Positions 7,090 through 64,000 of a DNA stretch of 64,000 nucleotides are shown here, in pieces. Source of the stretch: Tepidisphaeraceae bacterium (GTDB lineage Bacteria > Planctomycetota > Phycisphaerae > Tepidisphaerales > Tepidisphaeraceae); the NCBI GenBank assembly GCA_035551995.1, contig DASZME010000083.1, forward strand, positions 61,220-125,219. The letters are read 5' to 3'. The notes under the pieces were generated by a model. That model did no database searches, had not been told where the DNA came from, and saw nothing but the letters and a program-made list of their open reading frames with translations. Each line of letters opens with the position of its first letter. Positions within the stretch are counted from its first letter, which is position 1. Made by a program: the position numbers and the translations under genes.

Positions 7090-7153
7090 AATTTGTTTGA
7101 ATTTGAGTGCCGATTGTGTATATTTATCTGCATCAGGTCTGCCGGCGGTTGGA

Positions 7154-12669: not shown

Positions 12670-12747
12670 TTTCGATTCGACGTTCCGTGTCCGCGCCGTC
12701 CGGCATCTGCGTCCTGCAGCGCGGGGCTCATCTTTTCGGCGCCGACG

Positions 12748-12786
12748 GCGATTGAAGGCCGACGCCACGATGGCCTTCAATCGCCC
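12748..12786 (+). terminator. Perfect 14-bp inverted repeat (stem-loop) about 80 nt downstream of rpoD; candidate terminator or regulatory hairpin
   Basis: ggcgattgaaggcc - gacgccacgat - ggccttcaatcgcc. No U-tract follows, so it is not a canonical intrinsic terminator. Confidence 0.35.
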
Positions 12787-12935
12787 TTTGAAGCGCCAGG
12801 GCACTCGATTGTCAAGGCGTTTGGTTCCAAGTCCGCGCCCAACGTCCGCCCAAACCGCAATTTCAAAAAATCCAATCTTGGATTTTTCAACTACAGTCGA
12901 TTAAAAGTTCGGCAAAAATGAAGACCTGGGATTAA

Positions 12936-15967: not shown

Positions 15968-15970
15968 AGA

Positions 15971-16150
15971 ACCTTGCGCGATCATCGGCGTTTTTTTTCA
16001 TACCCTCGCCCGGTACGCCGGGAGAGGGAAGGGTGAGGGTTTCTTGGAAGGGCCGGATTTTATCGTGACTTGCATCTTTCCAAAAAACGCTCTCCGCAAC
16101 CCTCTCGCGGATTACCGGACGAGGGAGCAGAACGCGTAATCGCGCAAGGT
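15971..16150. mobile_element. Family-A MITE-like element, copy A1. It has terminal inverted repeats (ccttgcgcgatYRYcg) and two internal G/C hairpins.
   Basis: The left end is accttgcgcgatcatcggcg+T8. The first hairpin is ccctcgcccgg-tac-gccgggagaggg, followed by gtgagggtttctt. The second hairpin is ccctctcgcgg-attac-cggacgaggg. The right end is cgcgtaatcgcgcaaggt. The same architecture recurs at 51757 (inverted) and 53229. The element starts 4 nt after the nfeD stop. Confidence 0.55.
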
Positions 16151-16293
16151 TAATTGGCGCCGAAAGAGCGGTGAGCGCCCGAACGAAGACGCGCTTGTGC
16201 GCCCTCCGTCATCAACCGTGTTTCTCGACGGCCTGATAGCCGCGGGCGCAAGCCCGATCGCCCGGTATTTTTCGATACAATAAAGGAACTCAC

Positions 16294-17292
16294 ATGCCTG
16301 ATTTCAGCACGATCCTCCTTATCATCGTCGGCGTGGCGATCGTAGTGTTTCTCGCCATCACATTGCCCTTTGCGACCCTGTACGTCCGGGCGGCGGCGAG
16401 CGGGGCGGCCGTCGGACTATCCGATTTGGTGGGCATGCGCCTGCGGAAAGTGAATCCGATCGCCATCGTCACCGCTCGCATTCAGGCGATGCGAGCCGGG
16501 CTTCCGATCACCACGCAGGAGATGGAAACCCACTACCTTGCCGGCGGCAATGTCCAGCGCGTCATCAGCGCGATGATCGCGGCTCACAAGGCAGGCATCG
16601 ATCTCTCATGGCGAACCGCCACCGCGATCGATCTGGCGGGTCGCGATATTCTCGATGCGGTGCAGACGAGCGTGAACCCCAAGGTGATCGACGTCCCCAA
16701 CCCCACCTTTGGCCAGCCGACGATCGACGGCGTCGCCCAGGACGGCATTCAGCTTCGCGTCAAGGCCCGCGTAACGGTTCGCACCGCCATCGCGCGCCTG
16801 GTCGGCGGAGCGACGGAGGAAACGGTCATCGCCCGCGTCGGCGAAGGGATCGTCAACGCCATCGGATCGGCCGAGGATTACAAGCATGTGTTGAAAAATC
16901 CCGACTCGATTTCAAAAACCGTGCTGCACAAAGGTCTCGACGCCAACACGGCGTTCGAGATTCTTTCGATCGACATCGCCGAGATCACCGTCGGCGAAAA
17001 CGTCGGCGCCAAGCTCGCGGCCGATCGCGCCGAGTCGGACAAACGGCGTTTCCAGGCGGAAGCCGAGCAACGCCGCGCGATGGCGGTGGCGCAGGAGCAG
17101 GAAAACGTCGCCAAGCAGGCGGAAAACCGGGCGGCGGTCGTGCTGGCCGAGGCGGAGGTGCCGCGCGCGATCGCCGAGGCGTTTCGCAGCGGAAATCTGG
17201 GCGTGATGGATTACTACAAAATGAAAAACGTGCTGGCCGACACGCAGATGCGCGAAGCGGTCGCCGGCGGCGACGGCGGGACCAAGTCGTAA
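16294..17292 (+). CDS. floA: Flotillin-like protein FloA (YqfA/UPF0365 family, SPFH domain)
   Basis: The protein is near-colinear with the FloA family. It has an N-terminal transmembrane helix ([26 protein letters not shown]). Matching segments include [76 protein letters not shown] and [10 protein letters not shown], with a C-terminal coiled coil. Confidence 0.85.
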
Positions 17293-42046: not shown

Positions 42047-43885
42047 GTGGGGCCAACCGGAACGGCGGCGAGCGTTTTCGCCGCGACCGACACTCCGGAA
42101 ATTGCGCTATTATACGGCGATTCCGATACACTCGTGCGCGTGAGATCGCGCTCCGTGTACCTGATCGCCGCGATGCTTGTCGCGCTGGCCGGCTATGCCT
42201 GCCGGTGTCAGGCGCCCTTGATCTGGGACGGCGCCTATCAGTTTAACGCAACGCTGATCATGCAGCGGCCCTACATGTACGAGACGCGGTTTCATACGCT
42301 TTTATTCTGGTGGCCAACCGTCTGGGCCAGTCGGCATTGCGCGTCGGTCGCGGTTCTGCAATCGCTGTTCGGGCTGCCTTTTCTATTGGCCGCGCCGGCG
42401 AGCCTTTTGATGTCGTGGTGGATCGTGCGGTCGCACGCGCCGCGCCTGATCTTCTGGGCCATTTTCGGCATGGCCGCTTGCCTGCCGGGCCAGATTTTCG
42501 TCATCAACGACAGCACCGTTCTGGTCTACCTGTTTTGGCCGGTTTTTCTGGGGCTGTTTGTGCCGCTGTCAGGCCTCAAGAAATGCGCGCTCGGATTTCT
42601 ATGCCTGTTTCAATTCATTCATCCGCTGGGCGTTCTTTTACTTGCGGGAGCGACGGGAACCGCATTGGCGATGAGTGTGATCGATCCGGCTCATCGTCGG
42701 CGCCTGCTGCTTCGGGCGTCGGTGATGGGCGCCGTTTTTTCGGTCGCGGTGTTCAAGATCGCGATAGTGGCCGAGATGCGGCAATTCGACGACCCGTACG
42801 CCGTTCGCGAGGCGACGCTCGGAATCTCGGTTCGGCGGTGGGAATGCGGGGTGGCGGGATGGCCGTTAAGGGGATTGTGTTTTATCTGGGCGGCCGGCGC
42901 GCTCGCGCTCCTGGCGCAAATGCCCCAGCGTCGATTCACACGGCGTTTGGTCGTGAACGTGAGCGTGGCGTTTGTGCTCGTCGTTGTTTTCATCGTCCGG
43001 ACATTCGGATTTGACGAGCCGGATCGAGCGGATGAATTCACCGCATTGGCGATCGTTTACCTCGGCATACTGCTCGTCGGCCGGGCCCGGCGAACTGCAA
43101 TAATCGCGGCGTCGGTTTTGCTGGGCGCCGGTTGCGTCGGCGCCGCCCTGGAGTTGCGTCAAGGCTCCATCCATGGCGCCGATCTGGCGGCGGCCGTCGC
43201 GGACTGCGCCATCCTTTTCTTCTCATGGCTCTGCATGCGACGCTTGCGGGAGCATGCGAAAACCCTTGGCGCCATCGCGGTATTCAGCGCGCTCATCGGC
43301 GCCGCCTTTTGGATCTACTGGGCCGCCGACGCCACGCGCTGGGGTTACGCGCTGGATTACCGCAGATGGATCGGTCCGCTCGCTTTGCCATTTTTCGCTT
43401 TCGCGGCCATCGACGTGTTCTTGAGCGCGCGGACGCGTTTGCGAAGCACGGCGCCGTCGGTTATGGGCGTGCCCGAATGGCTGGCGGCGACTGTGATCAC
43501 CGCGTTCGTCATCGTCCTGTCGCTTCAATATACCCAGTGGCGCCAAATGACAAATCGGCTCATGAGCAGCGTTCGGCAATATCCATCGGCAATCGTGCCG
43601 ATATCTTCCATGCCCTGGATAGGCCATACCGCTCTGGATCACTGGAGCACATTTGATTTCGTGATGAGCCAGCAAGGCAAGGCGCCGGCGAAATTTCTCC
43701 TGAACGATCACTCGTTGGAAATGCTGCGCCAAACGCCGCCGAAACTCCCGCATTGGGATTTATGTCCCTACTTGTCGAATGATTCGCCGTCGCCCGCCCC
43801 GGGGCCGATGGGTTGGTATGACATGCGGCCCTTGCTGGCGAATCCCCGGAAAGACTCCCGCGCCGGACCCGCCTCCAAAACCTAA
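42047..43885 (+). CDS. Large polytopic membrane protein of unknown function (612 aa, more than 12 transmembrane segments); candidate polymerase or translocase of a glycan pathway
   Basis: The protein is a continuous run of hydrophobic helices with short Arg-rich cytoplasmic loops and a soluble C-terminal domain. The start is uncertain. No motif was recognised. Confidence 0.45.
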   Translation: MGPTGTAASVFAATDTPEIALLYGDSDTLVRVRSRSVYLIAAMLVALAGYACRCQAPLIWDGAYQFNATLIMQRPYMYETRFHTLLFWWPTVWASRHCASVAVLQSLFGLPFLLAAPASLLMSWWIVRSHAPRLIFWAIFGMAACLPGQIFVINDSTVLVYLFWPVFLGLFVPLSGLKKCALGFLCLFQFIHPLGVLLLAGATGTALAMSVIDPAHRRRLLLRASVMGAVFSVAVFKIAIVAEMRQFDDPYAVREATLGISVRRWECGVAGWPLRGLCFIWAAGALALLAQMPQRRFTRRLVVNVSVAFVLVVVFIVRTFGFDEPDRADEFTALAIVYLGILLVGRARRTAIIAASVLLGAGCVGAALELRQGSIHGADLAAAVADCAILFFSWLCMRRLREHAKTLGAIAVFSALIGAAFWIYWAADATRWGYALDYRRWIGPLALPFFAFAAIDVFLSARTRLRSTAPSVMGVPEWLAATVITAFVIVLSLQYTQWRQMTNRLMSSVRQYPSAIVPISSMPWIGHTALDHWSTFDFVMSQQGKAPAKFLLNDHSLEMLRQTPPKLPHWDLCPYLSNDSPSPAPGPMGWYDMRPLLANPRKDSRAGPASKT

Positions 43886-44852: not shown

Positions 44853-47081
44853 CTATTCCGCCGGCGATTTCAGATCCTTCCGCAGTTGCAAGAGCATCGC
44901 GTCGAACAGACCGTCCGCCACTTTAGTATCCGTCCCCTCCGCCGCCCGCTGCCAGACGCTGATGGCGAGGCTGGCGTAGCGTTCGGTCGCGAACGGCTGG
45001 CGATCCATCGGCGTTAACAGCTTGGCGAATTCCCCAAGCTGCCCGACGGGAAGGTCTTTGCATTGGTCGGCATACTGCCCCAACTCCTTCACCAGCGACA
45101 GCAGGGGAGCGAAACGCTTCTGGATCGCCGGCCAGCGAGATATCGGCGTGAGATTCTCTTCGGCGAAACCATCGAACGCGGCGGCGGTGGCGTCGCGATA
45201 CGGGACGATCAACGCCGTCAGCTGATCGGGACTGATTGACCAGTCGGCCCAGCGCGAAAGCGACGGCGCCTTGGCCAATCCCGCTTCGACGTCGCCGGCC
45301 ATGCGCAACGCGTCGTACAGTTGGCGCAGCGTGTCGAGCTTCAATAAGTCCGAAATTTCCATCTCCTTGCCCGAAGCCAGTTGTGACGCCAGACTGCCGA
45401 TGAGGGTGGCGCGCTGCGCGTCAACCGCCGACAGACGGCCGTGAGCGTAGGTCTTGATCGTTTCGGAGGACAACCCGGTCGGCGTCACGATCGAGTCGGC
45501 CAGTCGGGCCAGCCGCTCGACGTCGGCGAGGAATTTAGCCGCCGCGTCCCGTCCGTTGACGACGCCGGTCGAGCTGAGTTCCCCGGCCGCGGAGACCGCT
45601 CGTTTTTCCAACCCGCCGGTCGGGCGCGGGCGATACGGCGCCAGCGCCGCGATCGCGTGAGCCGACGGTTCGATGACGGACAAACTATCGAGATATTGCC
45701 GCATCGATTCGACGCGATTTACCAGCCCGCCGGGAGTGGGGGCGCCGGCGGCGAAGGGGTTGGCGCCGGCGCCGAGAGCTGCCGCGTCGTCGAGAAAGTT
45801 CGCGCGCTGCGCGGCGAATTGCTTTTGAAGGGTCTCCACCGCCTTCTTCTGGGCGAACGGAAGCGCGATCGGCTTGCGGGCGTCGAAGCGCGTGCAGAGC
45901 TGTAGATATTTTTCGATGGCGCCAAGAACTTTGCCGCCCGAATCCGGATTGGCGTTTGCCCAGGTGAACGTGGGAGACAGCTTTTGCAAAAGAGCGGCGG
46001 GAAGGCGCATGCCCTGAAGCTGCATGAGCAATTGCCGATATTGGCTCAGCGACGCGACGCGACTCTGGCCGGCCGCGCGGGTTCGCACGTCGGTGAACAA
46101 CGCCAGCCCCTCGGTCAATTGCTGCTCGATCTTCGGCCGGGCGGCGGCGTCGACGCCGGTGTTGTGCGCCAGGCCCTCGGCCAGTTCCGTCGAAGTCGAA
46201 AGCATCTCGTACAGGGCCTCGGCGTCCGGCGATGCGTTGTCTCCGGCGGCGGGCGCCTGAGCGGCGGCGGCGAGCGACTGCAATTGCTTCCTCAACGCCG
46301 GCGAGATGTCCAGCGTGCGGCCGAGCGAAGCCAGTTCCGCGATCGTCGGCGGGCGCGTGGCCGAGGGTTCGGTCGTCGGCGCGGTCGTGGCGATCACGAT
46401 GTTTCGGGGGCGCATCGGCGGAAGGTTTTTGATTTCGACGGGATTGGGATTGGAGATGAGAATCAACGCGGTCGCCACTTTTCGACTGACGTCGTCGACC
46501 GTGCCGACGGTGGCGCCGTCCGGCAATCCGTATGTGAGATCGTGAAGCGATTTGAGTCCGTGGAGTTGGCCGGGCGTGAGCGACTTGGCGAAATTTTGCA
46601 GCCGCTCGCCGACGTGGTCCGCGGCGGATTGAAGACTGATCACGCGAAGCGCGACACATGCCTGTAGCGATTCATCGACATCCTTTTGATCGCGCGGCGC
46701 CGATTGCCTGGAGGCGCTGGCTTCATTTTGCGGCCTGGTCGCCGGCCCGCCGTCGTCGGATGAAATGGGCGCCGGGGGCTCCATCGCGCCGCTCAGCATC
46801 CATCGCTCGACGAGGCGCGTATCGATTTGATAATCGATGATGGCCAGGGCCGGACCGGCGGCGTCCGTGCGGCGCTGCAGGAGATTGGCCAGCTCCGATT
46901 CGATCGTGTTGACGCGCTCCTGAAACACTTCGCCGGGCGTGGACGGCGGCGGTGGAGGCGGCGCCACCAGGGCGGGGGCGGCGAATAAGGCCGCCGCGCA
47001 AAAGACCCATGCGAGGGCGACGCCCGTCGCCCAGGCGTACGATCGGGGCTGGCGCCGCCGAGAAAAAGGCGTGGTTTGCAT
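44853..47081 (-). CDS. Hypothetical 742-aa exported or anchored protein (Ala/Leu/Gln-rich, helical), function unknown
   Basis: An N-terminal signal-anchor is present (YAWATGVALAWVFCAAALFAAPALVA). The ORF is long with consistent codon usage. It lies 42 bp downstream of a GT4 gene and directly upstream of the PIN gene on the same strand. Confidence 0.5.
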   Translation of the reverse strand: MQTTPFSRRRQPRSYAWATGVALAWVFCAAALFAAPALVAPPPPPPSTPGEVFQERVNTIESELANLLQRRTDAAGPALAIIDYQIDTRLVERWMLSGAMEPPAPISSDDGGPATRPQNEASASRQSAPRDQKDVDESLQACVALRVISLQSAADHVGERLQNFAKSLTPGQLHGLKSLHDLTYGLPDGATVGTVDDVSRKVATALILISNPNPVEIKNLPPMRPRNIVIATTAPTTEPSATRPPTIAELASLGRTLDISPALRKQLQSLAAAAQAPAAGDNASPDAEALYEMLSTSTELAEGLAHNTGVDAAARPKIEQQLTEGLALFTDVRTRAAGQSRVASLSQYRQLLMQLQGMRLPAALLQKLSPTFTWANANPDSGGKVLGAIEKYLQLCTRFDARKPIALPFAQKKAVETLQKQFAAQRANFLDDAAALGAGANPFAAGAPTPGGLVNRVESMRQYLDSLSVIEPSAHAIAALAPYRPRPTGGLEKRAVSAAGELSSTGVVNGRDAAAKFLADVERLARLADSIVTPTGLSSETIKTYAHGRLSAVDAQRATLIGSLASQLASGKEMEISDLLKLDTLRQLYDALRMAGDVEAGLAKAPSLSRWADWSISPDQLTALIVPYRDATAAAFDGFAEENLTPISRWPAIQKRFAPLLSLVKELGQYADQCKDLPVGQLGEFAKLLTPMDRQPFATERYASLAISVWQRAAEGTDTKVADGLFDAMLLQLRKDLKSPAE

Positions 47082-49959: not shown

Positions 49960-50147
49960 CAGTACAAGTATACGCGATGAGGGGCGCTCCTGCTTCCTTT
50001 AGCCGCCGTGATGACACTGCCGGGACCTGAACGGACACGGCCTCTTTTCCCTCGCGGCGATCGTCGCTCCAACGATCGGCCTTGCCGTGGCGTATTTACA
50101 AATGCGTCGCAGCATTTCGCCAGCGGTTTTCACGGAAAGGTCGTGCG

Positions 50148-51713
50148 ATGAACTCCTTCGTCCATCGTGCAGGACATGATACGGCGATTGGCCGTCTGAT
50201 CGTCGCAACGCTTGTTCTGTCGGCGATGACCGCCGCGCTGCATGCACGCGATCATTGCGCGCCGGGCGCCTGCGCGGCGGCCGATGCCGCTGAACCTCCC
50301 GCGGGGCCGTCGGGGAATCTTCATCCGATCCCCTCGGCGGATGCTCTAGCCGGGGCGCTTCAGGGGCTGAAGGAAATTTTCAAACCCTATCCTCCCGCCA
50401 AGGCGGAAGACAAAATCAAGGTCGCCGAAAAACTGATTTCCGACAACGAAAAGAGTCCCGGCGATCTCAATTCACAATATGTGCTCTTGCACGAGGCCGC
50501 GGAATTGTTCGCCGCCGCCGGTGACCTTCCGGCGGCGCTCAAAGCCGTGGACGATCTGGCCGGCGTTTTCGCGATCGACGTCGCCCAGGAGAAACTGTCC
50601 ATCCTCAAGCGGGCGAAAGTCGGCCGTCTTTCCCCATCCGCGGCGTCTGCATATGCCGACGCGACGCTGACGCTGGGATGGGGCGCGATGCGCCGGGGTG
50701 ATTTTGAAAGCGCCAACCGGGCGGTTTCTTTGGCGGCGGGCGCGGTGCACGAGGCGCAAGATCCAAAATTGACGTCGGCCGCCCAGGCGCTGACAGCCGA
50801 AGCCCACAGGGCGCTTGGCGAAGCGGGACAAGCAAGAGCCGCCGAAGAAAAGCTCAAAACTCAGCCAAACGATCCGTCGGCCAATCTCGGCGCCGGCCGG
50901 TTCCTCTGTTTTTATCGCGGCGATTGGACGCGGGGTTTGCCGATGTTGGCCAAAGGCTCGGACCCGACGCTCAAGGCGCTAGCGGAAAGCGACTTGGCGC
51001 CTCCGACCGACGCCGACGCGCAACTTGCGCTGGGCCAAAAATGGGGCGAATTGGCCGGCCGGGACACGACCTTTGCCCGCGCTCAACTTCGCCAACGTGC
51101 GACGTACTGGTATGCGTTGGCCGAAGCGGGACTCGGCGGACTCAAAAAGGTCCTGGCCCAGCGCCGCATCGCCGATCTCAATAGATCCGACGCATCCGAT
51201 CCCGCCTCTTTCACCTCGCGGGAACTGACACTTGCGAAGTTGCTTAATGATCCTTCGCACTGGATCGTCAAAAACGGGAAATGGGACAACGCCACCGGCC
51301 GCTTCCACGGCGAAGGCGACGCCGAGATCGACCTGGATACGCCGTTGCCGCCGGACATTGTTTTTAGTTTTCATATCAACGTCATCAGTGGCTCGCGTCC
51401 GCGAATGCATTTCGAGGGGACGGGAATGACTTTCGCCAACGAAGGGCGTGGGAGAAATCTGTATCCGCACGGCACGAAAGCGCCCGAGCCGCATTTTATG
51501 TATGAGAACAATCAGCCCCATGCGCTGAAATTCAAATTGGCCGCGAATCATTTTGAGATCGCCATCGACGGCAACACCGCGTTTACGGGAACGTATAAGG
51601 CCGCCAAGTCCATCCACCTGAGGCTGCGCGCCGGCGATAGCTGGAGCCGAGGAACGACTGAATTTTGGGGATTCGAGGTGGAGTCGCTGCCGAACGGAAT
51701 GGGCGGGAAGTAG
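50148..51713 (+). CDS. Hypothetical secreted protein with an N-terminal helical/TPR-like region and a C-terminal beta-sandwich-like domain
   Basis: The ATG at 50148 gives a signal peptide (MNSFVHRAGHDTAIGRLIVATLVLSAMTAALHA). The C-terminal segment WIVKNGKWDNATGRFHGEGDAEIDL...HFEIAIDGNTAFTG resembles LamG/3-keto-disaccharide-hydrolase-type beta-sandwich domains. Confidence 0.5.
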   Translation: MNSFVHRAGHDTAIGRLIVATLVLSAMTAALHARDHCAPGACAAADAAEPPAGPSGNLHPIPSADALAGALQGLKEIFKPYPPAKAEDKIKVAEKLISDNEKSPGDLNSQYVLLHEAAELFAAAGDLPAALKAVDDLAGVFAIDVAQEKLSILKRAKVGRLSPSAASAYADATLTLGWGAMRRGDFESANRAVSLAAGAVHEAQDPKLTSAAQALTAEAHRALGEAGQARAAEEKLKTQPNDPSANLGAGRFLCFYRGDWTRGLPMLAKGSDPTLKALAESDLAPPTDADAQLALGQKWGELAGRDTTFARAQLRQRATYWYALAEAGLGGLKKVLAQRRIADLNRSDASDPASFTSRELTLAKLLNDPSHWIVKNGKWDNATGRFHGEGDAEIDLDTPLPPDIVFSFHINVISGSRPRMHFEGTGMTFANEGRGRNLYPHGTKAPEPHFMYENNQPHALKFKLAANHFEIAIDGNTAFTGTYKAAKSIHLRLRAGDSWSRGTTEFWGFEVESLPNGMGGK

Positions 51714-53458: not shown

Positions 53459-54793
53459 TTAACCTACCAATATGTCCGCGTCGCGCGTTTTGGCCAGCCA
53501 CCAGAGGATGGCGATGGGCGTTAATCGTCCCAGCAGCGCAATTACGCCAAGTAGATATAGACCGGGACCGACCATTGAAATTGGATCGTGCGTGTCCTGG
53601 GTGAGTCCGACGTTGCTTAGCGCGCTAAACGTCAGAAAGATCAGCCGATCGGTGGGGATTTGCGGTTGGAGAACGCTCAGGAGCGGGAAACATATGCCGG
53701 CGATCAGAAAGTAAAGCCCGACCCACGCCCCGGCGACGCCGAACGCCCGGTTGACGGGCCTTTTCGCCAGGACGTCGGAGAAGCCGGTGAAGAGCTTCCA
53801 GAGGGTGGTGGTTTTCAATCCTCCGCCGGCGCCGGCGGGGCTGGCGCCGATGATCATCAGCAGCAGGATGAACCAATAAGCCGACTTGGGAAAGCGATGC
53901 AAATACTCGAAGGGCATGCCAAGCGTCCGGGCGTTGAGGGCGGCGGTCGAAGCGGCGACAAACGTCGATCCAACGCCGACGCCGGGATCGATCGTGTTCG
54001 GCGCGGGCTCGCTTTGCGACGCCGTCGCTCCCACAATGGCGGCTTCGTGGTGTAATAGCTGCGATAGAAAGAGCACGGCGGTTGACGCCAGATAGATGGC
54101 GGCCGTCAGCTTGATGACCGTGCGGGTGTGGAGCGAAAGTTTTTTCGTTACACGGATCGCGCGAAAATACAAATCCATCAGCACCGGCAGTCCAAGTCCG
54201 CCCATCACCGATAACGGCAACATTACCCCTTGCACGGACCACGATCGATAACTCGGAAAATAGTGGTGGCCTTTGGCGCTTAGCAGGACGGCGCCGCTGT
54301 TGCCAAAGGCGCAGGCGGATTGGTGGACGAGATCGAAAGCATAGTTGCCGCCCATCGCCGCCGCCCCTACGGCGATCGCCAAAACCTCGGCGACCAGGGC
54401 GGCGGCAATGACCTGCCGATCGTTGAACGGCATTCGCAGCGCCCGCACGCCGGCCAATCCCCCGGCCATCATCGCGAACAAGCTCCCGGCGATCGTCAGG
54501 ATCAGCACGATGGCCGGGCCTTGCGCGCTATCCAGGTTAAAGTCATTAAATCCGATCGATTGTTGAAAGCCGGTGAGCGTGGCGCAGTTGATGCAGAGGA
54601 ATAGTCCGCGATCATAAGTGATTTCCCCGCCGTTGATCATCACGCCCGGCATGCGCAGCCATAGCGAGCACCCGAAGATCAGCAGAAAAAGCGCCGCGGC
54701 CAGCCACACGGTAACGACGGCGCCGGGCTGATCCTGGCGGATCGCTAACGGCGGTACACTTGCGGCGGATTCGGTGACGGCTCCGGCGGGCAC
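53459..54793 (-). CDS. trkH: Trk/Ktr/HKT-family potassium transporter membrane subunit (TrkH-like)
   Basis: The protein has about 10 transmembrane segments and re-entrant P-loop-like segments (CINCATLTGFQQSIG, GNSGAVLL). The size and architecture match the family. Confidence 0.75.
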   Translation of the reverse strand: MPAGAVTESAASVPPLAIRQDQPGAVVTVWLAAALFLLIFGCSLWLRMPGVMINGGEITYDRGLFLCINCATLTGFQQSIGFNDFNLDSAQGPAIVLILTIAGSLFAMMAGGLAGVRALRMPFNDRQVIAAALVAEVLAIAVGAAAMGGNYAFDLVHQSACAFGNSGAVLLSAKGHHYFPSYRSWSVQGVMLPLSVMGGLGLPVLMDLYFRAIRVTKKLSLHTRTVIKLTAAIYLASTAVLFLSQLLHHEAAIVGATASQSEPAPNTIDPGVGVGSTFVAASTAALNARTLGMPFEYLHRFPKSAYWFILLLMIIGASPAGAGGGLKTTTLWKLFTGFSDVLAKRPVNRAFGVAGAWVGLYFLIAGICFPLLSVLQPQIPTDRLIFLTFSALSNVGLTQDTHDPISMVGPGLYLLGVIALLGRLTPIAILWWLAKTRDADILVG

Positions 54794-55437: not shown

Positions 55438-55677
55438 TTAATCATGGACCATGATGTGGCGCATGCCCTCGATCCGCTTCCATGGAATGTGGCTGTTCTG
55501 ATCTTTTACGGCTCTGGAGACGGTGCAAGCCGCTTCGCCAACGATCATAACATGCCGAAAGATGTGCGACTGAAGCGGCGGGTCGCGATTGAATGCTTCG
55601 CGGTCGGCGGGCAGGTAATGCGCAACTTCGTCGATCGCGTCGAGGATGTCTTGGAGCCGAAGACGAATCGACCTCAT
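55438..55677 (-). CDS. hepT: HepT/DUF86 HEPN-domain RNase toxin
   Basis: The 79-aa protein carries the Rx4HxY motif (MRHIMVHDY). It lies immediately downstream of an MNT gene, overlapping it by 4 bp. Confidence 0.8.
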   Translation of the reverse strand: MRSIRLRLQDILDAIDEVAHYLPADREAFNRDPPLQSHIFRHVMIVGEAACTVSRAVKDQNSHIPWKRIEGMRHIMVHD

Positions 55678-55904
55678 AGTGGAATCGCCTCCTTGCGGAC
55701 GATCTGGCCAAATCGCCCGTTCAACGCGCCTTCAGAGATCACGTCCACTTCTATCCCCAGCAAGTCGCGCAGATCCATCAGCAATCCGCCCTGATCGAAT
55801 AGGGAACGGCCCGGTTCAAAGCGCACCACCAGATCAAGGTCCAACTCTTCCGTCGCGTCGCCCCTTGCCACCGATCCAAAGATACGCACATCGTGCCCTA
55901 GCAC
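55674..55904 (-). CDS. mntA: MntA minimal nucleotidyltransferase antitoxin (pol-beta superfamily)
   Basis: The GSxxRG...DxD motif is present (IFGSVARGDATEELDLDLVV). The protein is 76 aa and paired with hepT. Confidence 0.8.
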   Translation of the reverse strand: MLGHDVRIFGSVARGDATEELDLDLVVRFEPGRSLFDQGGLLMDLRDLLGIEVDVISEGALNGRFGQIVRKEAIPL

Positions 55905-56039: not shown

Positions 56040-58307
56040 CTACTTCTTCGTCACCACCGTCACCGTATCCCCTTTTTTTCCGTCCGTCTTCGCGGCCGAC
56101 GGGATCGGGAGCGGGAGGTCGCCGGCGGATTGCATGGCTTCCATCGCCTGGCGACTGAGCTTATCGGCCAGCTCCTTCATCACGGAATTTTCGGCGTTGC
56201 CGTCGAAGTGGAAGCCGGATTTCTCCGCGACCATCAGGCTGATCAACGTCCCCAGCACGCCGGGGGCGACGCCGGTGGAAGTGGATTCCGAGCCGACGCC
56301 ATTGCCGCCGGCCATGAACATCTGGCTGGGAACAAGCGGCTGGCTGCTCTTGCTGAGATGCTCGGCTACCAGAGCCAGCGCGTAAAGACGCGGATCGCCG
56401 TAGCTGTTTACTTTCTGCATCAACACCGACGCTTCGGAGATACCAATCTGTAAGAGACGCTGGCCTTCGCCTTTGCCGGCCAGCACGCGCTGCTGGCTCT
56501 CGGCGGTGGCGGTCACCACCATCTGCTCGGCGGCGCGACGGCTTCGCTCCAAATCCGCGTCGGCCATCACCACCTGCTGCTGCGCCTGTTTGCGGGCGCG
56601 AGCCAGATCGGCGTCGCCCTGGTTTTCCGCGATCCGAATCGCGACTTGCGACGCGGTCAGTTCCGTTTGCTTGTTGGCCAGAGCCTGCGCCTCGGACAAC
56701 GTACGCTGCTTGTCGGCGGCTTGGCGCTGGCGCTCGAAGGTTTCCAATTGCTCGATCGACAATTGCCGAATGCGAAGCTGCTCGAGCAACGTCTCGATCT
56801 TACCGGCCGCTTCGGCGGTATCGGGCTTGCCGATCAAGACGTCGACGCATTCGATATCGAACTCGCCAAAACGCCGTTGCAACTCGGCTCGGCTTTCTTT
56901 TTGAATCTCGTCGCGATGCTGCAACAGCTCGAGCATCGTTTTCTTGTGAGCCACGTCGCGGAAATAGGCGCTGAGCATTGGATCGAGCGTCTGGGTGATC
57001 AGCTTTTTGACGTCGCCGAACCGTTGGATAACGCTGGGCGCTTTCATGTAGTCGATGTGAACGACCACGGACAGCGGCAGCAAAGGTTCATAGGCGTCCT
57101 TGGTCACCAGATCGATGCTCTTGAGCGATTCATCGTAGTGATGAGACTCTGATTTTCCGGTCACCCAATGGAGCACGAAGTTGGTGGTCGGTACAAGAAT
57201 GATCTGGCCGGCATAGGTGTTGAAGGGATATTTGCCGGGGCCGAAGGGTTTGTCCCACACGCCGCGTTCGCCCCGGCTGACGCGTTCGCCGTGACGGAAG
57301 GTATCGCCGGAAAGGTCTTTGCCCGGAGGGCCGAAATAGCTGACGACGACGCCGACATAACCGATCGGCACCACCGTCTTGGGTTGCTCTTCGATACTGG
57401 CGAACCAGCGGTTGAGGAAGTAGGTTCCGTCGGTGAGGGGCACATACTGGCGGCCGCGTCGTCCGCCGGCGCGGAGGAAGGCTTCGGGGTCCTGAAAGTT
57501 GTTGTGGTAGTTGGCGTCGCCGGGGTCGTTTCCGACCGACGGCGCGATGATTTCGCCGGGGGAGATCGACGGCCCGTCCTGTACCGTGACGATGCCGATG
57601 CTGTCGACGATGAGGGTCTTGTTGGGCGTAAGCGGGTCCGGCGCCTCGATCGGGCGGCCGATGACGATCGGATCGAATCCTCTCACTTCCTGGATTTCCT
57701 TCTGCCAGCTCACGAGCTTCTGAACTTCATTGCGCACTTCGAGCAGGTGGTAGACGCTGTCTTCGGTGATGACGACAAAGAGGGCGGGATTGATGGCATA
57801 GACGCCTTCGCGCAGGATGGCGCGCTGGCGGCCGCGCTGGCCCTGTGCCATGAACTTGCGGGCGTCTTGAAAGTTATTGGAATCGACGACGCGGGCGAGC
57901 GTCTGGCTCGGTTGAAGCGATTCGCCGTCGCGGGCATAGATATAGGCGATCTTGCCCTGGGGGACGGTGACGAGCGGGGTTTTGTGGATTCGATATTTGA
58001 AGGGCCAGAGCCGGAAGTGCCATCCGCCGCGGAGCAGGTCGGCCTGGTAACCGGCCTCGCCGTTCATGGCGATGATACGCCCATCCTTGACCGATCCGCC
58101 GGCCGACCAGAGTTTTTCGATGACGCCGACGCTGTCGTTGGGAATATATCGGGCGCCGATGAGGGCGGACCCGAACAGGACGACGATCAGGACCAACAGG
58201 ACAAAAGCCCCGAGGATGACCCAGATGCCGACGTCGTCGAAAGCGAGAGAATGGTGCGAGACCGTGAATGACTGAGCCGAATCCGCCAGTAAAATTCCCC
58301 AATTCAT
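56040..58307 (-). CDS. Large SPFH/flotillin-family membrane protein (FloT/YqiK-like) with an extended C-terminal coiled coil
   Basis: An N-terminal transmembrane helix is present (IWVILGAFVLLVLIVVLFGSALIGA). The SPFH core follows. A long Ala/Gln/Arg/Glu coiled coil is present (ETFERQRQAADKQRTLSEAQALANKQTELTASQVAIRIAENQGDADLARARKQAQQQVV...). The start is at the internal ATG (MNWGILLAD). Confidence 0.8.
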   Translation of the reverse strand: MNWGILLADSAQSFTVSHHSLAFDDVGIWVILGAFVLLVLIVVLFGSALIGARYIPNDSVGVIEKLWSAGGSVKDGRIIAMNGEAGYQADLLRGGWHFRLWPFKYRIHKTPLVTVPQGKIAYIYARDGESLQPSQTLARVVDSNNFQDARKFMAQGQRGRQRAILREGVYAINPALFVVITEDSVYHLLEVRNEVQKLVSWQKEIQEVRGFDPIVIGRPIEAPDPLTPNKTLIVDSIGIVTVQDGPSISPGEIIAPSVGNDPGDANYHNNFQDPEAFLRAGGRRGRQYVPLTDGTYFLNRWFASIEEQPKTVVPIGYVGVVVSYFGPPGKDLSGDTFRHGERVSRGERGVWDKPFGPGKYPFNTYAGQIILVPTTNFVLHWVTGKSESHHYDESLKSIDLVTKDAYEPLLPLSVVVHIDYMKAPSVIQRFGDVKKLITQTLDPMLSAYFRDVAHKKTMLELLQHRDEIQKESRAELQRRFGEFDIECVDVLIGKPDTAEAAGKIETLLEQLRIRQLSIEQLETFERQRQAADKQRTLSEAQALANKQTELTASQVAIRIAENQGDADLARARKQAQQQVVMADADLERSRRAAEQMVVTATAESQQRVLAGKGEGQRLLQIGISEASVLMQKVNSYGDPRLYALALVAEHLSKSSQPLVPSQMFMAGGNGVGSESTSTGVAPGVLGTLISLMVAEKSGFHFDGNAENSVMKELADKLSRQAMEAMQSAGDLPLPIPSAAKTDGKKGDTVTVVTKK

Positions 58308-58671
58308 ATGGCACCTCGTTGAGTAGTGCCGGTTTTGGGGTCGCGTTTCCGTTGACAGGGGAAATCGGTCGACCTCAACCGACATCGACGGACAATATAA
58401 TACGTCGAATCCGCGATCGACGCGAGTATGTCGCGGTTTGCTGATCGGGATGTTAATGGTTATTTGAAAGCGACTTGCGACAGGTTATCAACGGGCCGTC
58501 GGATTATAGTCGTCGCGGACTTTCGCCTGAGTGGCTCGAATCGTCGGCAATATTTCGGCGTCGCTCCTTGTCATGCGTCCGGCGATTCGAGTCAAATGGC
58601 TCGTTCGACTCCCACCGATCGTACGTGATGGGATTGGCCACTTTGACAATATCGGCACGAAACAGAACCAA

Positions 58672-60524: not shown

Positions 60525-61037
60525 GTGGGTAGCTTTCTTTCCATGTGGCGAGGCAAAACTCCACTGATCGTCGCGGTTACGGTTTTGGTTCACTGGATAC
60601 TTTGGCTTGCCTATACCAATAACGTCGGCTTTCGCGAGATGATCGCCGGCGCCGTCGCCGCGGTCATTTCAGCCGTGGGGGCGGCGGTATTTGCCGAGCA
60701 GGGGAACATTTGCTTTCGCTTCCGCCGGCGCGATCTGATTCAGGCCGTCTATCTGCCGTGGTATGCGCTGACGGGGACGTGGGAAGTGTTGCAATCTCTT
60801 GCCAAGCAACTCTTTACCCAGGCGGGCGCACCGAGCTTGATCGCCGCGGTTGCCTTTGACGTTGGGGATGACGATCCGATATGCGCCGGCCGGCGCGCCC
60901 TGGCCGTTTCTTACACGACGATCACGCCTAATTTCGTGGTTCTTGGGATCGTGTACGATCAGCGGCTCCTGCTCTACCACCAAATTCTGCCGGGCGAGGT
61001 TTTAACGATGACCCGGCATCTGGGAGCGCGCCCATGA
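60525..61037 (+). CDS. mrpE: Mrp/Mnh-type cation/proton antiporter subunit E
   Basis: The protein is 170 aa, with an N-terminal helix pair (LIVAVTVLVHWILWLAYTNNVGFREMIAGAVAAVISAV). It is typical of MnhE. It is the first gene of an overlapping operon: each downstream gene overlaps the previous one by 4 bp. Confidence 0.7.
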   Translation: MGSFLSMWRGKTPLIVAVTVLVHWILWLAYTNNVGFREMIAGAVAAVISAVGAAVFAEQGNICFRFRRRDLIQAVYLPWYALTGTWEVLQSLAKQLFTQAGAPSLIAAVAFDVGDDDPICAGRRALAVSYTTITPNFVVLGIVYDQRLLLYHQILPGEVLTMTRHLGARP

Positions 61038-61297
61038 CCGGCGACATGAACGTCTGGCTATGGGCGGCTTTTGCGCTGCTGTTTTCGCTCATTCCCTGCA
61101 TGGTGGTGAGTTTTCGCGGCGACGTGGCCGATCGCCTGATCGGGCTGGAACTGACCAGCGTGCTGGTTACCGTTGAACTGGTCCTCCTGGCCGAGGGGTT
61201 CCACCATCCGTCGTTTTACGATCTGCCGCTGACGCTGGTGCTTCTCAGTTTCGGGGGTGGCATGGTCTTCGCTCGGTTCGTGCAAAGGTGGCTATGA
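61034..61297 (+). CDS. mrpF: Mrp subunit F
   Basis: The protein is 87 aa with two or three transmembrane segments (WLWAAFALLFSLIPCMVVSFRGDVADRLIGLELTSVLVTVELVLLA), which matches MnhF. Confidence 0.7.
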   Translation: MTGDMNVWLWAAFALLFSLIPCMVVSFRGDVADRLIGLELTSVLVTVELVLLAEGFHHPSFYDLPLTLVLLSFGGGMVFARFVQRWL

Positions 61298-61668
61298 CGC
61301 ATCATCCGATCATCACTGGAACGCTGCTGGGCGTGGCGGTAGGGCTGGCGATTATTTGCTCCATCGGGCTGATGGCGATGCGTGAATCGTATCAGCGCAT
61401 TCACTTTTCGTCGCCGATCGTGACCCTTTCGATGTTGCTGGTCGTCGTTGCCGTCTTCGTCGAAGAATCGGATTCGCAGGCTCGGATCAAGGTCATTTTG
61501 ATCTACATCCCGATGCTGGTGATGAATTCAATCGTCAATCATGCCACCGCGCGGGCCATTCGTATCCGCCAGGCGGGCCAATGGGAACCAACGGCCCAGG
61601 AAAAGATTCCCGTCGTCGAGAATAAAGGGATCGCCGGCGTCGCTCCCTTTGCGGGAAAGAAATTATGA
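61288..61668 (+). CDS. mrpG: Mrp subunit G
   Basis: The protein is 126 aa ([51 protein letters not shown]), which matches MnhG. Confidence 0.7.
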   Translation: MAMTHHPIITGTLLGVAVGLAIICSIGLMAMRESYQRIHFSSPIVTLSMLLVVVAVFVEESDSQARIKVILIYIPMLVMNSIVNHATARAIRIRQAGQWEPTAQEKIPVVENKGIAGVAPFAGKKL

Positions 61669-61952
61669 TCCTGATCCAATTAATGCTGCTCTTGCTCGTG
61701 GCGATTTCCGGCACGGCGGTTGTCTTTGCGCGCGATCCGTCGACTCAGCCGGTCGGCATCGGATTTTTCGGTTTAATCCTGACGGTGATGTTCATGGCGT
61801 TTCGAGCGCCCGACGTCGCGCTGTCGCAGATCGTGATCGGCACGGTCGGCTTGCCGCTGATGATTTTACTCGCGCTAGCCAAGATGCGCCGCGACGCCCA
61901 ACAACGGGAAACCGCCGAAAAACGGCCGGCGAAAGAAGGGCCCGCGCGATGA
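61665..61952 (+). CDS. DUF4040-type small membrane subunit (MrpA C-terminal / MbhD-like module)
   Basis: The protein is 95 aa with three transmembrane segments (LIQLMLLLLVAISGTAVVFARD...GLILTVMFMAFRAPDVALSQIVIGTVGLPLMILLA). It sits at the position this module occupies in Mbh/Mrp-like operons. Confidence 0.55.
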   Translation: MILIQLMLLLLVAISGTAVVFARDPSTQPVGIGFFGLILTVMFMAFRAPDVALSQIVIGTVGLPLMILLALAKMRRDAQQRETAEKRPAKEGPAR

Positions 61953-62701
61953 ACTCCTCAATGCGCATGGTCTTGTTCTTTTTCGGAGCGGCGGGCATCG
62001 CGCTCTTGCTGGTCTGCGCGTTTGTGCGTCTTCCGGGTCCCCAAAACCTTCGCAGCCGATATCTGAAACGGATCAATGATGGCGCCGTTCCCGAGCGCAA
62101 CGCGACCGACGCGGTAACGGCGGTCAATTTCGATTACCGGGGCTTCGATACCGTCGGCGAAGAATTCATTTTGTTCGTGTCCGTCATGGGATCGATGGTT
62201 CTGCTGCGCCAGGCGTCGGAGAAGCGCGACCAGCCGCTTCCCGACGCGATTACGCCCGCGCGCGACGTGCCGGCCAGCGACGCCGTGCGGCTGTGGATAC
62301 TCATGATGGTGGCGCCCAAAATCCTGTTCGGGATCTATATCGTCTCCCACGGGCAACTGACTCCCGGCGGCGGTTTTCAGGGCGGAGTCATTCTCGCTTC
62401 CTCGGCGTTGATCATCTATGTCGGGGAGAATTTCGAGGTCTTCAAAAAGATACTCTCCCATCCGCTCATTGAAACCGCCGAGGGCGCCGGGGCCGGGTTG
62501 TTCGTATTGATCGGCATGATCGCCTGGTTCTGGGGACGCCCGTTCCTTACCAACACGCTGCCTCTGGGTCAAACCAATGAGCTTACCAGCGCCGGAACCA
62601 TTCCGCTTATCAGCCTCGCCACGGGGCTGGAAGTTACCGCCGGTTTTCTGCTTTTGCTCTTTGCCTTTTTGCAAGAGACGTTGACGGCCAGTTCGGAGTA
62701 A
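61949..62701 (+). CDS. mrpB: Mrp subunit B (MnhB)
   Basis: The MnhB hallmark is present (VTAVNFDYRGFDTVGEEFILFVSVMGSMVLL). The start is at the internal ATG (MNSSMRM) that overlaps the previous stop. The upstream part of the track ORF is Arg-rich and out of character. Confidence 0.75.
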   Translation: MNSSMRMVLFFFGAAGIALLLVCAFVRLPGPQNLRSRYLKRINDGAVPERNATDAVTAVNFDYRGFDTVGEEFILFVSVMGSMVLLRQASEKRDQPLPDAITPARDVPASDAVRLWILMMVAPKILFGIYIVSHGQLTPGGGFQGGVILASSALIIYVGENFEVFKKILSHPLIETAEGAGAGLFVLIGMIAWFWGRPFLTNTLPLGQTNELTSAGTIPLISLATGLEVTAGFLLLLFAFLQETLTASSE

Positions 62702-62739
62702 CTGTTGTCGATCGGTCGCTATCTTCTCCGGAGACGGAC

Positions 62740-63099
62740 GTGGAACACGTTATTTTATATAGTGGCTTTGCCGTCGCGGGCTGGCTGCTGCTGATCGGGC
62801 TGTACGGCATCGTCACCAGCACGCATCTGGTGCATCTGTGCCTGTGTCTGGCCGTGGTGCAGGCATCGACCTATGTCCTGCTGACGGTGATCGGCTATCG
62901 GCCGGGCCTCCCGGCGCCGGTCTTCGTCGATCACGTGCGTCCGGGAAGCCCCGCGGTCGATCCGGTCGTCCAGGCATTGATGCTGACCGACATCGTCGTC
63001 GAGGCGACCGTCGTGGCGCTGCTGTTGGCCATCACCGTGCAGCTTCACAAGAAAACAGGCTCGGCCGATCCGAACCACGTCAACCTGATGCGAGGATAG
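62740..63099 (+). CDS. mrpC: Mrp subunit C (NuoK/ND4L-like)
   Basis: The protein is 119 aa with three transmembrane segments (ILYSGFAVAGWLLLIGLYGIVTSTHLVHLCLCLAVVQASTYVLL). Confidence 0.8.
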   Translation: MEHVILYSGFAVAGWLLLIGLYGIVTSTHLVHLCLCLAVVQASTYVLLTVIGYRPGLPAPVFVDHVRPGSPAVDPVVQALMLTDIVVEATVVALLLAITVQLHKKTGSADPNHVNLMRG

Positions 63100-63101
63100 T
63101 C

Positions 63102-64000
63102 ATGCAGACTCCCGCATTGCCGGTCGTCATTCCGCTCTTGGTGGCCGCGATCCTCGCCGCCGCCGGGAGTCTGCTTCCGCGCCGGATGCTCGACTCCGTG
63201 GCGATTCTCACGTCCGCCGCCGTCTGCGCGATCTGCGTCGTCCTGGTAAAACTTTCCGCCGCCGGACCTATCGTCTACTGGTTCGGCAATTGGAAGCCCG
63301 ATCCCCACGGTCATTTTCCCGTCGGCGTCTGCTTGATGATCGATCCGCTCGGCGCCGGCATGGCGGCGCTGGTGGCGCTGCTGGTGCTGGCGGCATTGAT
63401 ATTCTCATGGTCTTACTTCGAATCCATCAAATCGCTCTATCACTCGCTCATGCTCGTATTTCTGGCGGCCATGTGCGGGGTTTGCCTCACCGGTGATCTG
63501 TTTAATCTCTTCGTCTGGTTCGAGCTGATGACCGCGACCGCCGTGGGTCTCAGCGGCTACAAATCCGACGAGCGGGCGCCGCTCCTGGGAGCGCTGAACT
63601 TCGCCATCAGCAACACCGTCGGCGCTTTTTTGTCGCTGACCGCCGTCGCGCTGCTGTATGCTTTTACCGGGTCGCTGAACATGAGCGAAGTGGGCCGGTC
63701 GCTCGTGGCGCACGATCCGGGGCCGGCGTTCGTGTCGGTGGCGTTTCTTTTGCTCATCAGCGGCTTTCTCGTCAAGGCGGCCGCGTTCCCGTTTCATTTC
63801 TGGCTTGCCGACGCTCATGCCGTGGCGCCCACGCCCGTCTGCATTCTCTTTTCCGGCGTGATGGTGGAACTCGGCGTCTATGCCATCGCGCGTCTTTACT
63901 GGGTCATCTTCGCTCCGCTGCTGGGAGCGGATTCTCACGCGGTGCAAGTCGTTCTGCTGACGATGGGATGTTGCGGCGCGCTGGTCGGCGGCGTCTTCTG
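63102..64000 (+). CDS. mrpD: Mrp subunit D (NuoN/ND2-like proton-pumping subunit), 3'-truncated by the window end
   Basis: The ATG at 63102 opens a frame that stays open to base 64000. Antiporter-module motifs are present (WFELMTATAVGLSGYKS, FPFHFWLADAHAVAPTPVCILFSGVMVELGVYAIARLY). The gene is not in the ORF track because no stop lies inside the window. Confidence 0.8.
   Translation, partial: MQTPALPVVIPLLVAAILAAAGSLLPRRMLDSVAILTSAAVCAICVVLVKLSAAGPIVYWFGNWKPDPHGHFPVGVCLMIDPLGAGMAALVALLVLAALIFSWSYFESIKSLYHSLMLVFLAAMCGVCLTGDLFNLFVWFELMTATAVGLSGYKSDERAPLLGALNFAISNTVGAFLSLTAVALLYAFTGSLNMSEVGRSLVAHDPGPAFVSVAFLLLISGFLVKAAAFPFHFWLADAHAVAPTPVCILFSGVMVELGVYAIARLYWVIFAPLLGADSHAVQVVLLTMGCCGALVGGVF

Follow-up and report, generated by a model that had tools for sequence, protein, structure and literature searches.

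The 64,000-nucleotide stretch of DNA analysed here (the window; Tepidisphaeraceae bacterium, assembly GCA_035551995.1, contig DASZME010000083.1) ends inside a run of membrane-protein genes, raising the question of whether these genes encode the membrane arm of a redox complex or an ion antiporter that works alone. The run occupies positions 60525-64000 on the + strand and comprises seven open reading frames (ORFs) in the order MrpE, MrpF, MrpG, MbhD/DUF4040, an MbhE+MrpB fusion, MrpC and MrpD (subunits E, F, G, MbhD, B, C and D below). A preliminary description of the same DNA had reported these genes in this order, and that content was confirmed by the ORFs together with Pfam or NCBIfam matches for six of the products and a profile comparison for E. 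From the analysis presented below, the locus is probably a self-contained seven-gene operon for a stand-alone, MrpA-less group 3 Mrp-type (CPA3) cation/proton antiporter serving ion and pH homeostasis.

In the literature, group 3 Mrp systems have no mrpA, only mrpD, and are arranged in the order E-F-G-B-B'-C-D (Haja & Adams 2021, PMC8415708), while the name group 2 is given to the MrpA-MrpB fusion type with canonical order; the earlier attribution of the present gene order to group 2 is thus replaced by group 3. At the locus studied here, homologues of E, F, G, B, C, D and MrpA's C-terminal portion are encoded together, and the gene order is non-canonical. Additionally, as judged partly through relatives, mrpA is absent and the operon is not joined to a redox module.

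The first gene encodes an mrpE/mbsA-like small membrane subunit (60543-61037, +; 164 amino acids); an alternative GTG start at 60525 would extend it to 170 amino acids, the Joint Genome Institute (JGI) gene call also chose the ATG at 60543, and the proteins of relatives likewise have 164 amino acids. It is followed on the same strand by an mrpF/mbhB-like gene (61034-61297, +; 87 amino acids; Pfam MrpF_PhaF, E = 4e-10), an mrpG/mbhC-like gene (61294-61668, +; 124 amino acids; Pfam PhaG_MnhG_YufB, E = 5e-13, and the NCBIfam subunit G models) and the gene for the MbhD/DUF4040 subunit (61665-61952, +; 95 amino acids; Pfam MbhD, E = 6.5e-14). Subunit B (61949-62701, +; 250 amino acids) joins an MbhE-like N-terminal part (Pfam MbhE, E = 1.5e-4) to an MrpB/MbhF-like C-terminal part (Pfam MnhB, E = 1e-21); C, of the mrpC/mbhG/nuoK type, begins with GTG (62740-63099, +; 119 amino acids; Pfam Oxidored_q2, E = 9e-18). 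The last gene, D, is of the MrpD/MbhH type and is the only antiporter-like subunit (63102-64000, +; first 299 codons, no stop; Pfam Proton_antipo_M, E = 2e-24).

Each gene had been described as overlapping its predecessor by 4 bp, which holds for four of the six junctions (ATGA at E/F, F/G, G/MbhD and MbhD/B) and fails for the remaining two: a 38-nt gap lies between B and C, with GGAG preceding the GTG start, and a 2-nt gap between C and D. The MbhD/B overlap hinges on a B start at 61949, the JGI start call being 61961. A 1.6-kb Logan contig carries a protein identical to B. No regulatory RNA was matched upstream of E in an Rfam scan at E <= 1, and the one promoter-like match (- strand, 61351-61378; shuffled sequences gave a mean of 0.9) lies inside the cluster, not upstream of E. 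Terminator-like sites numbered 11 against a shuffle mean of 5.6, none of them at a gene boundary where it would split the operon.

The non-canonical order had also been likened to that of Mbh-type membrane modules, and this likeness extends from the gene order, which is that of mbhA-H, to the proteins themselves. The comparison with solved structures covered E, MbhD, B, C and D, and the top matches for four of these were chains of MBH (6CFW, MbhA-I) or MBS (6U8Y, MbsA-H'). D scored highest with MbhH (6cfw_H, 114 bits), followed by MbsH (99 bits), three MrpD chains (99, 82 and 80 bits), MrpA (66 bits) and NuoN (53 bits), its placement following from these ranked bit scores. B matched MbsE best (6u8y_E, 68 bits), which is itself an MbhE+MbhF fusion, ahead of MbhF (52 bits), MbhE (34 bits) and MrpB (31 bits), and C followed the same pattern with MbsG (58 bits), MbhG (48 bits) and MrpC (27 bits). 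The Pfam match of E to MNHE (18 bits) was below threshold; a profile of 11 homologues matched MbsA (6u8y_A, E = 3e-9), MrpE (7qru_E, E = 1e-3) and MbhA (E = 0.009). The MbhD gene gave near-equal scores to MrpA residues 656-728 (29 bits), MbsD (28 bits) and MbhD (23 bits), and its alignments with Protein Data Bank (PDB) chains identify it as the equivalent of MrpA transmembrane helices (TM) 17-19. By these sequence comparisons, E, B, C and D are clearly nearer to the Pyrococcus MBH/MBS chains than to classical Mrp, with MbhD about equally close to both.

This proximity, with D, B, C and E all scoring above classical Mrp and the genes in mbhA-H order, would also suit a redox complex of the energy-converting kind (Mbh, Mbx/Mbs or formate-hydrogenlyase-like), of which the cluster would be the membrane arm and whose catalytic module would lie past the window end or elsewhere. 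The window leaves room for such a module, stopping inside D with the next genes out of sight. It ends within mrpD, as had been stated, and the fragment has 299 codons and no stop; this point is the end of the source contig of the metagenome-assembled genome, and DNA past 64000 is absent from the assembly. The 299-residue product (P0001) is identical to a database entry named 'proton-conducting transporter membrane subunit, partial [Tepidisphaeraceae bacterium]', and a JGI metagenome contig carrying the D fragment (Ga0376674_0000128, metagenome 3300036800; 136.7 kb) stops at the same residue.

What follows D can be read in relatives. A one-genome-per-species scan yielded 80 loci, closer relatives were reached via the protein collection, and about 70 related loci were examined; the first homologue search, with the 299-residue fragment, gave mostly truncated proteins, and a second search used a full-length relative. 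In one long-read assembly among the close relatives (L082, ENA contig_19540), frameshifts break mrpF, mrpB and mrpD, and short-query searches can mislead on protein length.

Among the five close relatives (L082, L084, L089, L090 and L091), none has hydrogenase-like or Nuo-like genes after D. In L082 (D 84% identical) the cluster is followed by convergent glycosyltransferase genes and in L089 (83.6%) by a convergent gene of unknown function. In L090 (82.8%) a gene for an MscS-type channel (2426-3427) overlaps the D stop by 4 bp and a gene for MscL lies nearby (4405-4842, - strand); in L084 (82%) an MscS-type gene (11836-12855) overlaps the D stop in the same way and is followed by dehydrogenases; in L091 (77.6%) there are unknown genes, a Rieske protein and DUF892. 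The MscS-type products have 333-339 amino acids (PF00924, 40 bits), and such a gene may lie just past the window end. The same seven-gene cluster was present in four of the five, namely those that reach its 5' end (not L090), with the same subunit sizes where free of frameshifts; the L084 subunits (164, 87, 124, 95, 250, 119 and 612 amino acids) match those of the window in size. Directly upstream of E, L084 carries a GAF-GerE (LuxR-type) regulator (6095-7138) and the window a DEAD-box helicase; therefore, the upstream context is not conserved.

More distant bacteria repeat the pattern. The same E-F-G-MbhD-B-C-D order was found in loci L002-L066 and L068, whose hosts include Binatia, Phycisphaerae, Acidobacteriota, Actinomycetota including Streptomyces, Verrucomicrobiota, Bdellovibrionia, Polyangia and many Alphaproteobacteria and Gammaproteobacteria, among them Roseomonas and Methylobacterium. 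D was complete at 577-614 amino acids in nearly all of the 62 more distant bacterial loci (length outliers being L022 with 550, L011 with 657 and frameshifted, L012 with 643, and L061, cut at its N-terminus). In the five close relatives and in about 62 distant bacterial loci D is the last gene of the cluster, and the flanks vary: when ORFs within 4 kb on each side of 62 loci were clustered all against all, no neighbour family recurred in more than four loci downstream or more than seven upstream. The protein collection holds over 7,000 D homologues at E <= 1e-40, routinely annotated as Na+/H+ antiporter subunits, and the sole plasmid match was to a Streptomyces chartreusis megaplasmid (39% identity).

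Combined, these results run against the suggestion that hydrogenase, formate-hydrogenlyase or Nuo genes might follow D, as no such gene was found there in any of the five relatives at 78-84% identity and no neighbour family recurs across the 62 loci. The cluster also lacks an MbhM/NuoH-like docking subunit, genes resembling MbhM, J, K, L or N are absent from the window and from the relatives' loci examined, and D has an MbhI-like tail of its own (described below). The 64-kb window contains no respiratory, hydrogenase, MbhJ/K/L/N-like (NuoB/C/D/I-like) or MbhM (NuoH-like) genes. Additionally, Methylobacterium, Roseomonas and Streptomyces, which carry this cluster too, are aerobes not known for group-4 hydrogenases. 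A redox complex at this locus is accordingly regarded as highly improbable.

Full-length D proteins in the relatives at 78-84% identity have 609-613 amino acids, about 100-120 residues more than MbhH (510 amino acids) and MrpD (about 490). Their similarity to MbhH/MrpD-type proteins ends near residue 440, leaving about 170 C-terminal residues for which these proteins offer no recognisable counterpart. An AlphaFold2 model of one relative (P0157; 110 homologues; predicted local distance difference test score 91.7, predicted template modelling score 0.94) shows a 14-TM core plus extra helices, which after TM14 (417-441) span 474-489, 494-519, 539-555, 562-582 and 587-611. Helix 562-582 (PNVNRRLGQWIARGMGKLRKI) is basic and more amphipathic than any other helix of the protein (hydrophobic moment 0.62); after it come the motif L(H/Q)SGxVGDYVxW, shared across the family, and the last TM. 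In Foldseek comparisons, the superposition of the model on MrpD spanned about 530 columns (TM-score 0.91 when normalised to MrpD) and that on NuoL/ND5 about 620 (TM-score about 0.75).

A lateral helix has been described as universal in the superfamily; in MBH, where MbhI supplies it, it runs across the one antiporter-like subunit. A profile of the D tail gave weak, non-significant matches only, to MbhI residues 72-113 (HTGLLPDYVSYLL; E = 1.1) and to plant ND5 at its HL/TM16 junction (LQSGFVYHY; E = 0.4-1.8). This likeness to MbhI and ND5 is a lead, not proof, that fits the modelled secondary structure and amphipathicity of the tail. It suggests that an MbhI-type lateral element has been fused to D in this family and, by extension from the relatives, in the D of the window as well.

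The tail bears on a further explanation, in which the locus is a classical Mrp with shuffled gene order whose NuoL-like MrpA N-terminal domain is encoded at another locus. No more than 64 kb of this genome can be seen, and the MrpA C-terminal domain is indeed present (as MbhD and the MbhE part of B), so that the N-terminal domain alone is missing. However, no second D/A-like gene was found within 10 kb of D in any of about 66 bacterial loci, whereas the canonical A-B-C-D loci (L067-L081, mostly haloarchaea) show two each, A and D. The 64-kb window likewise holds no second antiporter-like gene, with one Proton_antipo_M gene only. Moreover, D brings a C-terminal amphipathic helix and a terminal TM, elements that MrpA supplies in classical Mrp, and the small subunits are much nearer to Mbs/Mbh than to classical Mrp; the stand-alone Mrp of Pyrococcus furiosus is also without MrpA. 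The rearranged operon with mrpA elsewhere, which had been named as the alternative to a redox complex, is therefore not the best description of a cluster that contains the MrpA C-terminal pieces and a D with its own lateral-helix-like tail, and we consider it very unlikely.

The only characterised stand-alone group 3 Mrp is that of P. furiosus (PF1147-PF1153, mrpEFGBB'CD), where deletion of the mrp operon made cells more acid-sensitive and weakened the Na+ stimulation of H2 production (PMC8415708). The window locus resembles it in gene order, E-F-G-(MrpA C-terminal pieces + B)-C-D with seven genes in all, and in having a single antiporter-like subunit, no MrpA and no redox module in the operon. 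In both, the MbhD-like segment is without the Glu of MbhD/MbsD (P. furiosus FRAPDVALSLIVVG, window FRAPDVALSQIVIG), P. furiosus MrpB having Leu at MbhD position 55 and the window Gln55. The two differ in how the pieces are joined: P. furiosus fuses MbhD to MbhE (MrpB) and keeps MbhF separate (MrpB'), whereas the window has a free-standing MbhD and, like MbsE, joins MbhE to the MrpB/MbhF part. They also differ in D, which in P. furiosus has 487 amino acids and a TM8 Lys, and in the bacterial relatives about 612 amino acids with a C-terminal module, the window having Glu in TM8. Finally, P. furiosus is a hyperthermophilic archaeon and the host of the window belongs to a bacterial soil lineage.

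Measured against classical group 1/2 Mrp (Bacillus, Anoxybacillus 6Z16, B. pseudofirmus 7QRU, Dietzia 7D3U), the locus shares homologues of B-G and of the MrpA C-terminal domain, D keeps the TM5 Glu/TM7 Lys pair, and the D core superposes on MrpD. It differs in lacking the NuoL-like MrpA N-terminal domain, in its E-F-G-...-D order instead of A-B-C-D-E-F-G, and in splitting the MrpA C-terminal domain between the MbhD gene and the N-terminus of B. The scores of B and C against classical Mrp are about half of the Mbs/Mbh values, and essential charges are changed at MrpA Glu706, MrpC His37/His40 and the MrpD TM8 Lys, as well as at the TM12 position in close relatives. Compared with MBH, D shares His239 of the LADAH motif with MbhH; MbhI is a separate subunit there, whereas here the weak MbhI-like motif sits at the C-terminus of the relatives' D, and MbhD Glu69, MbhG Asp37/His41 and the MbhH TM8 Lys are replaced by Gln, Gln/Tyr and Glu, respectively.

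These residues were followed across the family. D retains TM5 Glu141, TM7 Lys225, His239, His317, His343 and Lys347, of which Glu141, Lys225 and His239 are visible in the window fragment. In TM8, Glu256 (GVMVELGVY, also visible in the window) replaces the usual Lys, which was found in none of about 65 bacterial loci (Glu, or Ala, Ser, Pro or Gly taking its place) and in all canonical MrpA and MrpD of L067-L081 as well as in MbhH, MbsH and P. furiosus MrpD. The position of the TM12 Lys is occupied by Glu, Asp, Gly or Gln in the closest relatives of the window and by Lys or Arg in some other clades. In the small subunits, F carries a carboxylate, Glu39 of the motif DRLIGLE, at the position of the conserved MrpF Asp35, and B retains the RGFDTVGE carboxylates (equivalent to MrpA D792/E796) and the TPGGGFQGG motif. 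The MbhD motif (APDVALSQIVIG) has Gln55 where MbhD and MbsD carry Glu; Gly59 aligns with the essential MrpA Glu706, Gln55 lying one turn earlier, and many proteobacterial members in the locus survey have Glu55. In C, Gln41 and Tyr45 stand at the positions of MbhG Asp37 and His41, where MbsG has Glu37 and Asn41; relative to MrpC, His37 aligns with Ala42, one residue past Gln41, and His40 with Tyr45. The set His32-Gln41-Tyr45 is uniform across the bacterial loci in which C was recovered, apart from L056 (Arg at 32).

Across loci L002-L068, F Glu39 mostly pairs with Gln or Met at MbhD position 55, and F Gln39 mostly with MbhD Glu55. Compensatory covariation was considered for this pattern but is not demonstrated by it, since the pattern follows clade boundaries and several loci depart from it (L007, L012, L018, L025 and L037 lack the two carboxylates, and L011 carries them both).

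Several observations weigh against the stand-alone group 3 antiporter proposed here. The TM8 Lys of D has become Glu, an acidic or neutral residue stands at the TM12 Lys position of the closest relatives, and MbhD and C have exchanged Glu for Gln and Asp/His for Gln/Tyr, respectively, all at sites regarded as essential in classical Mrp and MBH. Further points on the same side are that the tail matches to MbhI and ND5 have E-values of about 1, that the end of the operon and the full length of D rest on relatives for the window locus, and that literature searches returned no characterised bacterial MrpA-less Mrp, only the P. furiosus study. Because the TM8 and TM12 Lys, the MbhD Glu and the Asp/His of C are replaced, Na+/H+ antiport of the classical kind is not assured.

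The substitutions bring in another possibility, a functionally diverged Mrp-like complex that transports another cation (e.g., K+), has a gradient-dissipating or pH-sensing role, or cooperates with the MscS-type channel whose gene is translationally coupled to that of D in some close relatives. It would account for a TM8 Lys absent from all bacterial members examined, a TM12 position that is not conserved, and a C site with Gln41/Tyr45 in every bacterial locus where C was recovered, as against Asp/His in MBH and His/His in Mrp; likewise, Gln55 replaces Glu in MbhD, and the family usually has the carboxylate in F or in MbhD, rarely in both. The MscS-like genes overlapping the D stop in L084 and L090, with MscL near L090, point in the same direction. 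However, many classical ion-path residues are kept, namely Glu141, Lys225, His317, His343 and Lys347 of D, both RGFDTVGE carboxylates of B and that of F, and the P. furiosus stand-alone Mrp still acts as a Na+-linked system without the MbhD Glu. Only two of the five close relatives show the MscS link, which the wider family lacks. Overall, such divergence appears rather unlikely, and the occasional coupling to MscS and MscL genes also fits a role in ion and osmotic homeostasis.

For the group 3 antiporter, cation/proton exchange for ion and pH homeostasis is the most likely function as judged from sequence, and a working arrangement can be proposed. D, as the single antiporter-like subunit, would supply the proton path; MbhD, the MbhE half of B and C would form a NuoJ/NuoK-like connecting module; and E, F and G, along with the MrpB half of B, would form the cation-translocating end. 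The C-terminal extension of D, with its basic amphipathic helix and final TM, probably clamps the single antiporter-like subunit as MbhI or the MrpA/NuoL lateral helix does. Na+ (or K+) would then be exchanged for H+ across the membrane, powered by existing ion gradients and with no redox module. Gene content and order, the homologies, the residue substitutions and, in relatives, the point where the operon ends are observed; from them we infer that the subunits form one complex, what the D tail does, which ions are carried and in which direction.

The rest of the window is ordinary chromosome, with dnaG, rpoD, trpD, NfeD-FloA, galK, mutY, gyrA, RNase R (rnr), xseA and glycosyltransferase genes. 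Directly upstream of E lies the DEAD-box helicase, then a large SPFH protein; the latter, divergent from the helicase (56040-58385, -), is an unusually long Band_7/SPFH protein of about 755-781 amino acids, and the NfeD-FloA pair (14438-17292, +) constitutes a second, separate SPFH/flotillin system in the window. Adjoining the SPFH gene is a toxin-antitoxin pair of a HepT-like protein and a nucleotidyltransferase (MNT) at about 55438-55889 (-; located from the gene calls at 2337-2788 of L083). Four large ORFs of 444-742 amino acids (42047-43885, +; 44853-47081, -; 50082-51713, +; 53459-54793, -) have no Pfam match at E <= 1e-5 and sit amid glycosyltransferase genes and a DUF6807 gene. At the other end of the window, a giant ORF (82-7089, +; 2335 amino acids) contains three DUF11 repeats, and the first 6 kb show a strongly negative GC skew (-0.10 to -0.24) with a positive AT skew.

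The membrane arms of complex I, MBH and MBS are considered to descend from Mrp modules, and the way in which an antiporter-like subunit is linked to the cation path remains a matter of debate. In nature such a machine takes its simplest form in a complex that stands alone with one antiporter-like subunit, and the only studied example is archaeal. The kind of system described here is already known; it departs from the archaeal example in the lateral-helix tail apparently fused to D, in its MBS-type fusion, in having lost the TM8 Lys and in the Gln/Tyr site of C. An MBS-like, MrpA-less version is common in soil bacteria of the Planctomycetota, Acidobacteriota, Actinomycetota and Alphaproteobacteria. 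The lateral-helix element apparently fused to D and the replaced, supposedly essential charges provide concrete residues to mutate. For genome annotation, the message is an ion-homeostasis antiporter operon, which is no sign of a hydrogenase or respiratory complex. More tentatively, and with considerable doubt on our part, this widespread 'minimal' bacterial Mrp family could be a mechanistically distinct branch, having one D with its own lateral helix, MBS-like small subunits, no TM8 lysine and a neutralised Gln/Tyr cation site. If so, its ion specificity or coupling could differ from both classical Mrp and MBH/MBS, and the family would offer a small, tractable model of how a single antiporter-like module couples to a Na+ module.

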